Below, in pieces: positions 52,286 to 55,311 of a DNA stretch of 64,000 nt (position 1 is the first letter of the stretch; the number at the start of each line of letters is the position of its first letter). The stretch spans positions 15,180 through 79,179 of the forward strand of contig JABHQR010000023.1 of NCBI GenBank assembly GCA_018696395.1, read 5' to 3'. The notes under the pieces were generated by a model that was not told the DNA's origin, did not search any database, and was given only the letters and a program-made list of their open reading frames with translations. The position numbers and the translations under genes were made by a program. This DNA is from an archaeon (GTDB lineage Archaea; Nanobdellota; Nanobdellia; Woesearchaeales; GW2011-AR9).

Positions 52286-53872
52286 TTACTTTTCATCTGA
52301 ATAAAACTGCTTTCTAATCTGATCAAACTCATGTTTACCACCATAAAATGCAGCAGTTAATGGGTTTACTTCTTTTGCAATTTTAACCATTTGATTAGCA
52401 ATATTTCTAATATCCCACTGAGCATGAAGGTCACACCTTAATCTTGAAAAAGCACACATCTCACGATCATTAATTTTCATCTTAACTAATCTCCTATGTG
52501 CGTTTGTAAGAACATATTGTGCAGATGAAAAACCCTTACCTTGATCCCTTAACCCATCAGAAATTTTAAAATAAGATGAAGATCCCATATTACAAATATC
52601 TTTTAACTCTTGATCTTTTCCAATTTGTTTAATAGATTCTGGCACAGTGATTCCTAAATGGGGATCATAATCTTTAGCTATTTGAGTTGTCATCCTATGT
52701 CTTTTAAGTTGTGCATAACAACTTGCCGAGATATTCAACTGAAATTCATAATCTCCAAATTCAGCTTCTCTTGGTAATGCATCAAATCTACCTGTATCTT
52801 TCAAAACTTCACGAATAAATTTTTTCTTATCATCATCAGCCATAATCCCATAAACTCTATCTGCCATTTCAAAAGTAATTGGAACATTTCTATGCACTAA
52901 AAGCGTTGAGATTAATTTTTTATCACAATCATCTGAATCTAAAAGAATAACATCATTAGTGTCCCCGATACTATCATTAAGTCTTTTAATAAAATTACCC
53001 CAACCCATAAAATAATTACCAATTGCATTCTGAATATTTTCTACACCATTTTCAAACTGTGAGTTGTCCAGCTCAATCCCCTTAAATTTCTCGAATCTGT
53101 CATCATCAGCCATGATAATTAATGATGGCGCAATTTTAGCAGCTGGCTCATAAAGTAATCTTCCCAATTCTTGAATCTCTTCTAAATCTTCATACTTAAA
53201 TCCCCTAATAGCATATTCTAAATTCCTTGCGTTGGCAGCGAAAGCCAATTGTACTTCAGTCGCCATTGTTAAAGCATAACGAGCATCTTCTTTAGCCCAA
53301 CCTTCAATGGTGTTCATAGCACGATTCATTTTATCAGAAACGCCCCGAGCTTTAGCTTCTTTTGCTTGTTCAACTAATTCAGGATTTTGTGATTTTTGAT
53401 ATTCAATAAGTTCAGGTAAAACTTTGAAATAAAATTCATTTTGTCTTGTTACATTATTTAAAAAAAGTTCTCTTTGTCCCGAATCAAATTCTTTAGGTAT
53501 TATAAAATCACCATCTAAAGTGATGTAACGTTGAGACTTCTCTGTAAAAGAACATAATCTATGATGTTCAAGTTTTTCTACACCTAATCTAGAAAGCCCC
53601 ATAATACCATAGCCAAATGTAGCATGTTCAGCAATAGAATGATGGTTCATAGCATAAACAATTGTCCGATTAGACTTTCTTGCTTTCTTAACTTGTTCAC
53701 TAGCTTCATCAACAAGCTCTTTAATAGTTCTTGGATCTCTACTAATTCTAGCTGCTGCTGCTGAAAATACTTCAGGAGTAATTTCATCTTTAGTAGGATC
53801 AAAAGTTCCATCTTGTAATTTTTTTAATGTACCTACATCTACTGTATGTGCTGCAAGAAAAATATCTAACAT
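52286..53872 (-). CDS. thyX: Flavin-dependent thymidylate synthase ThyX, tandem-duplicated (two ThyX-like halves in one 528-aa chain)
   Basis: First half has 'HHRLCSFTEKSQRY' (RHR-x7-S-like ThyX motif). Second half has 'LKRHRMTTQIAKD'. A single ThyX domain is about half this length. Confidence 0.7.
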   Translation of the reverse strand: MLDIFLAAHTVDVGTLKKLQDGTFDPTKDEITPEVFSAAAARISRDPRTIKELVDEASEQVKKARKSNRTIVYAMNHHSIAEHATFGYGIMGLSRLGVEKLEHHRLCSFTEKSQRYITLDGDFIIPKEFDSGQRELFLNNVTRQNEFYFKVLPELIEYQKSQNPELVEQAKEAKARGVSDKMNRAMNTIEGWAKEDARYALTMATEVQLAFAANARNLEYAIRGFKYEDLEEIQELGRLLYEPAAKIAPSLIIMADDDRFEKFKGIELDNSQFENGVENIQNAIGNYFMGWGNFIKRLNDSIGDTNDVILLDSDDCDKKLISTLLVHRNVPITFEMADRVYGIMADDDKKKFIREVLKDTGRFDALPREAEFGDYEFQLNISASCYAQLKRHRMTTQIAKDYDPHLGITVPESIKQIGKDQELKDICNMGSSSYFKISDGLRDQGKGFSSAQYVLTNAHRRLVKMKINDREMCAFSRLRCDLHAQWDIRNIANQMVKIAKEVNPLTAAFYGGKHEFDQIRKQFYSDEK

Positions 53873-53937
53873 TTTTATCTACCTCTTTTTTTATTTTTTA
53901 TATTAATACTATTAACATTATAATTATTAAAAAAAGA

Positions 53938-54180
53938 AGGGGGCTAGCAGGCATTAATCACAACAACCTTCAAGCAAAAATAAGCCCTTAATTTTTGAGA
54001 TGGCTAAGCGTAGCTTAATCAAAAGGACTAAAAAGGTCTTATTTGTTGACTGTAACTGCCTCACCCCAAGGTCAGTTACAAAACCTGCTCACCATACAAC
54101 AATAATATCATATGATAATACCACCACCCCTTCAATGAGAAAAGATTTAGTTAGTATTTTAAAGCATTTATGGTCTCGAA
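53938..54180. ncRNA. Candidate structured non-coding RNA (GC-elevated island in divergent intergenic region)
   Basis: Local GC is visibly higher than the flanks. A stable hairpin TGTAACTGCC-tcaccccaa-GGtCAGTTACA at 54051-54080. The track's 61-aa ORF here has no SD and an odd composition. No tRNA T-loop motif is present. Confidence 0.3.
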
Positions 54181-54294
54181 AATAGATTCTGATATCATAC
54201 CAATTTCAAACACAAATCAGAAACTTAAATTTTTCAGCATAATAATCATTTTAAAGTCTTAACAAAAAGACATTATCATAAACAGAGGTGACTT

Positions 54295-55311
54295 ATGATA
54301 ATCGGCGTAACAGGGGCATATGCTTCTGGAAAAGATACTGTAGCAAACATGTTACAGAAAATGAATTTTTATCACATTTCTTTATCAGACATTTTAAGAG
54401 AAGAACTTAAACTTCAAAAGAAAAAGCCAACCAGAGAAAATATGATTGAAGTTGGAAATAATCTTAGAACAACTTATGGCCCAAACATTCTAACTAAAAA
54501 AGCACTCAAAAAAGTAAGAGATGGTGAGAATTATATTTTTACATCAATAAGGAACCCAAAAGAAGTTGAATATTTGATGAACAGAGAAGATTTCTTATTG
54601 GTTAATGTCATCACACCTGAAAAAGTAAGGTTACGAAGAATTCTGGGTAGAGACAGAGAAGGCGACCCAAAAACATTGAAAGAATTAAGAGAAAGTGAGA
54701 AAAAAGAAAATAGTTCTAACCCAAACGCACAACAACTTAACACTGTTGCCAAAATGGCAAAAATTGTAATCAATAACGATTCTGATTTAGTTGCCCTAAA
54801 AAATAAAGTTGAAAAATTAGTAAAAGATTGGGTTTACAAATTACAAGATTCTAGACCTAACTGGGACGAATATTTCATGAACATAGCTGAAGTTGTTAAG
54901 AAAAGATGCAGTTGTATGTCAGCTAAAAAAGGTGCAATCCTTGTAAAAGATAAACAAATTCTTTCTACAGGATATAATGGGACTGCAAAAGGGATCAAAC
55001 ATTGTACTCAAGGTTCTTGTCCAAGATGTAATGATAGACATTTAGGAAAATTAAAGTCAGGAGATTATTCAGTAACTTGTATCTGTGCACATGCTGAAGA
55101 AAATGCAATTGTACAAGCAGCGTATAATGGAATTTCTACTAGAAGTGCAATATTATACACCACATTCACTCCGTGTAGTACTTGTGCCAGAATGATTATC
55201 AATGCGGGTATTGTTGAAGTTATTGCTAGAGTGTTATATCCAGATAGTATTGGGACACAATTACTTAAAGATGCAAAAGTTAAATTAAGAATCTTGAAAA
55301 AGAAAAAGTGA
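54295..55311 (+). CDS. Fusion protein: N-terminal P-loop nucleotide-kinase-like domain + C-terminal dCMP/cytidine deaminase
   Basis: N-terminus 'MIIGVTGAYASGKDTVANML' (P-loop). C-terminus 'CAHAEENAIVQAA' and 'PCSTCARMIINAGI' (zinc-dependent dCMP deaminase motifs H-A-E and PCxxC). SD 'AGAGGTGA' upstream. Confidence 0.75.
   Translation: MIIGVTGAYASGKDTVANMLQKMNFYHISLSDILREELKLQKKKPTRENMIEVGNNLRTTYGPNILTKKALKKVRDGENYIFTSIRNPKEVEYLMNREDFLLVNVITPEKVRLRRILGRDREGDPKTLKELRESEKKENSSNPNAQQLNTVAKMAKIVINNDSDLVALKNKVEKLVKDWVYKLQDSRPNWDEYFMNIAEVVKKRCSCMSAKKGAILVKDKQILSTGYNGTAKGIKHCTQGSCPRCNDRHLGKLKSGDYSVTCICAHAEENAIVQAAYNGISTRSAILYTTFTPCSTCARMIINAGIVEVIARVLYPDSIGTQLLKDAKVKLRILKKKK

Follow-up and report, generated by a model that had tools for sequence, protein, structure and literature searches.

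A candidate orphan small RNA between the divergent thyX and kinase-dCMP deaminase genes of a Woesearchaeales archaeon

Between two divergently oriented genes of an archaeon of the Woesearchaeales, which together make deoxyuridine monophosphate (dUMP) and deoxythymidine monophosphate (dTMP), lies a non-coding element of about 200 nucleotides (nt) that is elevated in guanine and cytosine (GC) and folds with unusual stability. The element belongs to a 64,000-nt stretch of GenBank assembly GCA_018696395.1 (contig JABHQR010000023.1, positions 15,180 to 79,179 of the forward strand), referred to here as the window, and all positions are those of the window unless a contig is named. It is, at best, a plausible but unproven small RNA specific to its strain. 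Our tentative reading, held at slightly less than even confidence, is that the element would be transcribed from the minus strand, mostly as a stand-alone orphan small RNA (sRNA); this claim is built on features of the sequence and on neither conservation nor expression, and it is from those features that we infer transcription, strand, ends and any function.

The source genome (G000; the window is C10:15180-79179 and the element C10:69116-69314, C numbers denoting contigs) comprises 1.38 Mb in 24 contigs, is 98.9% complete and has a GC content of 29.1%. An initial annotation, made from the letters of the window, had taken it for a small archaeal genome, and this agrees with matches to the archaeal signal recognition particle (SRP) RNA and RNase P RNA models on other contigs. 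The divergent intergenic region, put at ~420 base pairs (bp) in that annotation, measures 422 nt and is among the longest 6.5% of the genome's 1069 intergenic segments, the median of which is 87 nt. The locus is laid out as follows:

53873 to 54294, no strand: entire spacer separating the divergent thyX and kinase-dCMP deaminase genes
53936 to 54133, minus strand: core structured element, ~198 nt, 40% GC, absent from all orthologous spacers
52286 to 53872, minus strand: thyX (Pfam Thy1, two stretches)
54295 to 55311, plus strand: kinase-deoxycytidine monophosphate (dCMP) deaminase gene, a P-loop (d)NMP-kinase-like domain fused to a dCMP deaminase domain, 338 amino acids (aa)

The ThyX protein is of double length, with 528 aa and its two Thy1 stretches in a single chain. 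Contigs from four other public runs, each from a different study, span positions 53761-54291 piecewise with no differing letter, and the element is therefore genuine DNA and not an assembly artefact. At least eight studies have metagenomes, from marine and seawater samples, in which the organism itself occurs at low depth, the locus being identical in the four runs compared; the runs listed for the locus include no RNA run.

Composition, predicted fold and strand

The rise in GC content is real but moderate. The core of the element, at 40% GC over ~200 nt, compares with 24.1% in the remainder of the genome outside open reading frames (ORFs) of at least 100 aa, which themselves have 29.8%; the GC-elevated island of the initial annotation is thus present at a moderate height, and the GC-rich runs quoted there are in place (GGGGGCTAGCAGGC at 53939-53952, CACCCCAAGG at 54062-54071 and CCACCACCCC at 54121-54130). 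The best 150-nt segment of the element reaches 41.3% GC, a value reached by 9.1% of 64,849 intergenic segments of that length and ranking approximately 37th among 333 intergenic regions, and the best 200-nt segment reaches 39.5%, ranking 17th among the 214 regions of at least 200 nt. In GC content the element equals the genome's own RNase P RNA (40%) and lies under its tRNAs (47-68%). A stretch of 40% GC within non-coding DNA of 24% GC, in a genome whose median spacer is 87 nt, argues against old neutral DNA.

The predicted fold is unusually stable on both strands. The plus strand folds at -51.1 kcal/mol (z -3.72) and the minus strand at -63.4 kcal/mol (z -3.24), and none of 200 dinucleotide shuffles was as stable in either case; with 100 shuffles, the scores were -4.0 and -3.5, respectively. 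Forty-five GC-matched control segments from the same genome gave a mean z of 0.06 with a standard deviation (sd) of 1.15 and a minimum of -3.00. A coarser scan, with 15 shuffles each, covered the 45 GC-richest of 214 spacer segments; nine of the 45 reached z <= -2.7, of which six overlap tRNA genes, one coincides with a weak tRNA match, one (C21:42839-43038) is unexplained and one is the element. The unexplained segment (L065), a GC-elevated spacer with 42% GC, a z of about -3.0 and no Rfam match, is a second candidate structured RNA in its own right. The predicted structure of the element consists of these parts:

53936 to 53942, minus strand: closing helix P1, 3' strand (CCCCUUC), paired with 54127-54133 over 7 bp at a probability of 0.95-0.96 on both strands
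54127 to 54133, minus strand: closing helix P1, 5' strand (GAAGGGG)
53946 to 53952, minus strand: helix P2, 3' strand (GCCUGC(U)), with its partner at 54083-54089
54083 to 54089, minus strand: helix P2, 5' strand, paired with 53946-53952
54089 to 54118, minus strand: hairpin A, 13 bp with five G-U pairs, probability 0.94
54051 to 54080, minus strand: main hairpin, probability 0.92-0.97, eight perfect pairs and an extension past a 1-nt bulge
53965 to 54038, minus strand: long central arm, with an apical hairpin (53995-53998 with 54019-54022, and 54003-54006 with 54011-54014)

The folds of both strands have P1, P2, the main hairpin and the apical portion of the central arm in common. The 6 bp of P2 (53946-53951 with 54084-54089) have a probability of 0.60 in the minus-strand fold and 0.98 in that of the plus strand, and the lower register of the central arm depends on the strand because CCUU/AAGG is repeated. 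The main hairpin, which had been noticed in the initial annotation, is borne out with a core of eight perfect pairs (TGTAACTG at 54051-54058 with CAGTTACA at 54073-54080), extended after a one-base bulge by three pairs on the plus strand or by four, one of them U-G, on the minus strand. Hairpin A is formed by the minus strand only, the plus strand making merely a 4-bp hairpin at the same place.

Two signals flank the structured core:

53929 to 53935, minus strand: tract of seven T (T7), abutting the closing helix, a candidate archaeal terminator
54156 to 54163, minus strand: TATA-like box (TTTAAAAT), ending 22 nt before GAAGGGG

A U-tract is described as the archaeal terminator signal (PMC8716108). 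At six of the 11 known RNA genes of this genome printed for comparison, a run of five to eight T lies no more than 3 nt from the called 3' end, and intergenic DNA has only 1.65 runs of at least seven T per kb on each strand. The TATA-like box has the same spacing as the promoter of the tRNA-Met gene and a similar sequence; the 9-mer ATTTTAAAG of the deaminase gene's promoter is repeated at 54156-54164, where it is read on the opposite strand as the TATA box of the element. With the box counted as weak evidence, a TATA 22 nt upstream and a T7 abutting the 3' helix would fit the layout of an independent archaeal sRNA gene, in which a BRE/TATA promoter precedes the start by about 25 nt and the transcript ends in a U-tract.

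Three independent features favour the minus strand: the excess of G over C, hairpin A and the additional U-G pair, which only this strand can form, and the position of T7 directly against P1. On the minus strand the core holds 48 G and 31 C, and 48 A and 71 U, a GC skew of +0.22, and all 14 known RNAs of this genome likewise have more G than C (skew +0.02 to +0.24). An RNA from the plus strand, either stand-alone or as an extended leader belonging to the kinase-dCMP deaminase gene, would have an equal or better z-score (-3.72 to -4.0), would retain P1, P2 and the main hairpin, and could draw on a sigma-70-like and TATA-like match at 53897-53924. It would, however, be richer in C than in G (skew -0.22), unlike 14 of 14 known RNAs, it would have no run of five or more T within 20 nt after the closing helix, and the conserved promoter of the deaminase gene (54229-54257) lies downstream of the element; such a transcript is judged very improbable.

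The candidate RNA of the minus strand would thus be ~205 nt long, independently transcribed and codirectional with thyX. Transcription would start ~22 nt downstream of the TATA-like box, near G54133, the 7-bp closing helix GAAGGGG/CCCCUUC would enclose hairpin A, P2, the 8+4-bp main hairpin and the long central arm, and termination would occur at T7 where it abuts that helix.

Coding potential and known RNA families

An ORF called across the element raises the possibility of a small protein:

54000 to 54185, plus strand: 61-aa ORF, judged spurious

Its composition had been called implausible in the initial annotation, which had also noted that a Shine-Dalgarno (SD) sequence was absent, and both remarks hold. 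The GC contents of its three codon positions (0.30/0.44/0.33) differ from those of 658 long ORFs (0.41/0.31/0.18), the third-position value (GC3) of 0.33 being 5 sd above the 0.18 +/- 0.03 of genes. The codon score is -0.075 per codon, compared with a mean of 0.40 and a 5th percentile of 0.17 in chunks of real genes and a mean of -0.19 off frame, and thus falls well short of genes and within the off-frame range. No SD sequence precedes the ORF, and both neighbouring genes carry GAGGT. In its favour are the open frame with an ATG and an A/T-rich stretch ~20 nt upstream that could serve a leaderless mRNA. Against these stand the off-frame codon score, the anomalous GC3 and the missing SD sequence, along with the results of protein searches, in which the ORF had no Pfam family, no word-sharing homologue and, by phmmer among 1.84 billion representative sequences, no true homologue; the four phmmer matches are alignments in multiple stretches to translated tandem repeats. 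A real protein from this frame is therefore extremely improbable. One of these matches (P0002) consists of repeated CSTPRGITAPGH at CRISPR-like spacing, and it illustrates how a spurious ORF can obtain E-values of 1e-6 to 1e-11 from translated repeats in a protein library.

The housekeeping RNAs with which the initial annotation had compared the GC island are accounted for elsewhere in the genome. The archaeal SRP RNA model (RF01857) matches C2:8662-8930 with 111 bits (cut-off 96.5) and has no match in the window, the archaeal RNase P RNA (RF00373) is found at C20:18273-18588 with 150 bits and is without a match in spacer or window, and 5S rRNA (RF00001) lies on yet another contig (C8:79883-79997, 50 bits). 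RNase P type T (RF02357) has no match at E <= 10 in the genome, nor does the genome contain a match to 6S RNA (RF00013), a bacterial family. At gathering scores, Rfam gives no match in the 64-kb window; on the spacer at E <= 10 only noise is returned, the best match having 21.8 bits against a cut-off of 50, and even at E = 1 no Rfam family matches the element. None of the riboswitch families of Rfam 15, including THF, ZTP, 2'-dG and preQ1, is found in the spacer at E <= 10. With both RNAs located elsewhere and no Rfam match on the element, the SRP RNA and RNase P RNA reading is abandoned.

A tRNA hidden by introns deserves closer attention. A tRNA is recognized by its T arm (G53 T54 Psi55 C56, and C61), its D arm and its anticodon arm, and its introns by the bulge-helix-bulge that bounds them; C/D guide RNAs carry a C box (RUGAUGA) and a D box (CUGA) in a kink-turn (K-turn), and H/ACA guides a pocketed hairpin with a K-turn and a 3' ACA. 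The tRNA model RF00005 has 32 matches in the genome, some of only 13 bits and none on the element, and ARAGORN finds no tRNA on the element with or without introns (up to 300 nt); its run on the window gave no tRNA either. By eye, T-arm, D-arm and bulge-helix-bulge are all absent from it, in keeping with the T-loop motif that the initial annotation could not match. For guide RNAs, Rfam has no match of snoRNA type better than E 7.5, and inspection by eye found no correctly placed canonical boxes, no RUGAUGA/CUGA pair and no pocketed hairpin followed by ACA, the main hairpin being without an internal pocket.

A known housekeeping RNA in disguise, such as a guide RNA of C/D or H/ACA type or a tRNA that is permuted or has several introns, would find some support in the intron-rich and easily missed tRNA genes of this genome, of which ARAGORN reports 14 without and 31 with intron search, and in the 7-bp P1 followed on the minus strand by U and G, which resembles an acceptor stem with U8. 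Four bases, however, separate P2 from the acceptor-like strand, and RF00005, two local Rfam scans at E <= 10 and ARAGORN are all negative on the element, as is the search by eye for tRNA arms, bulge-helix-bulge and guide boxes; this reading is left with almost no probability. The tRNA set of the genome is itself cryptic, with 28 of the 32 RF00005 matches above the cut-off, and tRNA genes with multiple introns may underlie the weak matches in the GC islands C23:64319-64410, C8:114218-114296 and C5:62669-62686.

Distribution among relatives and origin of the insertion

The element is a lineage-specific insertion of ~270 nt between two divergent promoters, a conclusion drawn from orthologous spacers, nearly all of them short, that do not contain it. 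The fusion of kinase and deaminase occurs in 40 of 60 relatives and, with E <= 1e-30 as the limit, in 28 of 36 genomes belonging to the family, and in the 19 loci examined among these relatives it has 57-69% identity. ThyX is patchy, with four of 40 relatives positive at E <= 1e-20; its nearest named relative is a Candidatus Woesearchaeota metagenome-assembled genome (MAG). The thyX gene is divergent to the deaminase gene in five of the 19 loci (G008, G019, G025, G033 and G036), and in four of these five the spacer is 111-151 nt. In G001, of the same genus, thyX and the element are both missing, and the deaminase gene there adjoins, across a 126-nt spacer, an orthologue of the 321-aa gene found on the far side of thyX in the present genome. 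The right-hand limit of the insertion is set by the conserved promoter of the deaminase gene:

54229 to 54257, plus strand: deaminase gene promoter, with a TATA (ATTTTAAAG) at 54248-54256, the one part of the spacer that orthologous loci share

This promoter is matched by blastn at E <= 0.06 in the upstream regions of eight of the 19 relatives, more weakly in six more, and with 93% identity over 28 nt in G001. The conserved block (…AATCATTTTAAAGT…) lies ~40-65 nt upstream of the deaminase start.

The fifth spacer between thyX and the deaminase gene, that of G025 (G025:C30, L045 900-1500), is ~600 nt long and unrelated to the element; it holds a run of 100 N, a (GTTATTT)n tandem repeat, a minus-strand Cys-rich ORF of 67 aa, and a GC hairpin followed by T7. 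The spacer between these genes is thus a repeated insertion site. A miniature inverted-repeat transposable element (MITE) or other mobile remnant was rejected: BLAST of the element against its own genome finds a single copy, and contiguous terminal inverted repeats, target duplications and flanking direct repeats are all absent, the P1/P2 arms being interrupted asymmetrically (3 nt versus 37 nt).

The search for homologues outside the orthologous loci was equally negative. The four best-placed BLAST matches inspected all lie in unrelated sequence. A covariance model (R1), built from the minus-strand fold of this single sequence, had no match in eight assorted loci or, with filters off, in the 19 orthologous loci. 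No homologue was found by blastn against phages and plasmids; four exact-pattern scans of viral contigs returned one 16-mer match in an unrelated GC-rich contig, and an 18-mer scan of metagenome contigs returned three matches, none fitting R1. Scans anchored on ThyX yielded one distant Woesearchaeota locus in genome contigs and none in metagenome contigs. A conserved novel class of non-coding RNA thus has no homologue in the sets of 60, 100 and 400 genomes or in the 19 syntenic loci.

These searches and some other properties of the data weigh against an RNA gene. BLAST against the 60 relatives gave no real homologue, the best non-self match being 27 nt at E 0.003; R1 over 100 relatives gave one partial match of 16.7 bits (E 0.054), taken as chance; and 400 genomes of the phylum gave two short matches of 41-47 nt, one of which looks coding because an open frame runs through it to an ATG. 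Of the 18 orthologous loci whose upstream gene allowed a measurement, 17 have a spacer of 54-180 nt. Because the element is without a homologue, covariation cannot be counted, and because the contigs of other studies are identical to the window, population variation is uninformative. The stability score varies with the number of shuffles, the element reaching only -2.70 at 15; the arguments on terminator and strand were devised after inspection of the sequence; and the TATA box of the element counts for little, similar hexamers being found 30 times per kb. Unexplained GC islands are, moreover, not rare in this genome, given that 15 further GC-elevated spacers (L065-L079) are without an Rfam match at E <= 0.01; some of these may contain shorter ORFs, as only ORFs of at least 100 aa were masked.

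The alternative that draws most on these observations is a non-functional relic or recently acquired DNA, that is, a decayed small gene or a foreign scrap with an incidental fold and no stable RNA. It accords with an element unique to this genome and absent from the 19 orthologous loci and, by covariance model, from 100 relatives, with a spacer that can take up unrelated material as in G025, with the 15 other Rfam-negative spacers, and with a GC content above the local background, as expected of recent foreign DNA. No source was found for it, however: tblastx against the genome itself and the orthologous spacers returned no match below E 0.02, true homologues of the 61-aa ORF were not found, and phage, plasmid and viral matches are lacking. 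The element is also present once, with neither contiguous terminal inverted repeats nor target duplications, and chance poorly explains the combination of z-scores between -3.5 and -4 and a T7 that abuts P1 on the strand with more G than C. We regard this origin as unlikely, though it is the most serious competitor of the minus-strand RNA.

The proposal of the initial annotation, a candidate structured non-coding RNA, is accordingly retained in part. The element is non-coding, GC-elevated and more stable than its shuffles and the GC-matched controls; the named families and conservation have failed, with no Rfam family on the element and no copy of it in 19 orthologous loci, which is the outcome that the annotation itself had named as refuting. 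For that reason the proposal survives only in a weaker form, as a structured RNA specific to the lineage.

Relation to thyX and comparison with known systems

The element ends 57 nt before the start codon of thyX and is codirectional with it, between genes making dUMP and dTMP, which raises the question of whether it could be a cis-acting 5' leader or attenuator of thyX, riboswitch-like or bound by a protein, with T7 as a conditional stop. The feature on which such a leader would act is the following:

53882 to 53893, minus strand: thyX SD region (UAAAAAAAGAGG), which a read-through transcript would pair with 53928-53939 (CUUCUUUUUUUA)

The UUC-U7 tail of the element would then alternate between pairing in P1 and pairing with the thyX SD sequence. 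In the fold of the read-through transcript, CUUCUUUUUUUA (53939-53928) pairs with UAAAAAAAGAGG (53893-53882) and covers the SD sequence, a layout typical of SD sequestration, with a pairing probability of 0.81-0.98 and a duplex energy of -10.6 kcal/mol, at a cost of two to three pairs of P1 (from seven to five). The pairing of an A-run with a T-run, however, easily arises by chance in DNA of 24% GC, no riboswitch family matches, and the five relatives with an adjacent thyX are without such a leader, four of them having spacers of 111-151 nt. Immediately beyond T7 is a TATA-like box (AATAATTATAATG, 53927-53915), about as far from the ATG as in G019, so that thyX is probably transcribed from a promoter of its own, downstream of the element. 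A thyX leader is considered improbable, and a stand-alone sRNA is favoured over it as about twice as likely.

A more specific form of the leader, a newly born lineage-specific cis-regulatory RNA in which a ~200-nt sensor fold is coupled to thyX in a DPANN archaeon, is less probable again, a long shot at most. Under this model, transcription would stop at U7 when P1 is formed, and when P1 is open the UUC-U7 strand would pair with the thyX SD sequence; if true, it would represent an archaeal attenuator or riboswitch for thymidylate synthesis of no known family. Leaders of this kind in bacteria trade P1 against SD sequestration upstream of a metabolic gene, and the 3' strand of P1 could do likewise here. 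Unlike them, the element is without a ligand class or family, is absent from orthologous thyX genes and precedes a gene that probably has its own promoter. Termination-type riboswitches are not known to be established in archaea. Among the matches listed in a full-text literature search, none described a thyX-linked RNA motif.

An orphan minus-strand sRNA need not be without effect on thyX: on occasional read-through past T7, the ribosome-binding site of thyX would be paired with the tail of the element, and through this pairing the unit could locally modulate how much thymidylate synthase is expressed. All readings other than the minus-strand RNA, the thyX leader and the relic are, taken together, improbable, to a degree close to that of the leader alone.

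If transcribed, the element would be among the very few candidate regulatory or structural small RNAs for Woesearchaeota-like DPANN archaea, and an example of a very young RNA gene between a dUMP-making and a dTMP-making gene. For now its use is mainly that of a calibration case, showing that in this genome a GC-elevated, well-folding spacer is insufficient to call a housekeeping RNA. The genome's own SRP and RNase P RNAs are similar to it in GC content (40-46%), in an excess of G over C (+0.13 to +0.22) and in their paired ends; they stand above Rfam thresholds elsewhere in the genome, and the element fits neither model.

The approach of seeking RNAs in GC-rich spacers has precedent in bacteria. 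In Pelagibacter, an AT-rich marine genome, ranking the long GC-rich spacers put tmRNA, SRP RNA, RNase P RNA and riboswitches on top, and thyX there merely flanks the tmRNA gene (Meyer et al., 2009; PMC2704228). The candidates of that survey and of the GC-IGR pipeline (PMC6429828, PMC8632094) resemble the element in their long spacer, GC content above background, stable fold and lack of coding signal; the surveys are bacterial and demand covariation, whereas the element is archaeal and has no homologue. Archaeal intergenic sRNAs with a TATA promoter of their own and a U-tract end, such as those reported for Pyrococcus abyssi (PMC3124441), would be matched by the candidate in its size of ~200 nt, its intergenic place and its putative layout of a promoter and a U-tract, which resembles that of the genome's tRNA genes; no target or partner protein is indicated for it.

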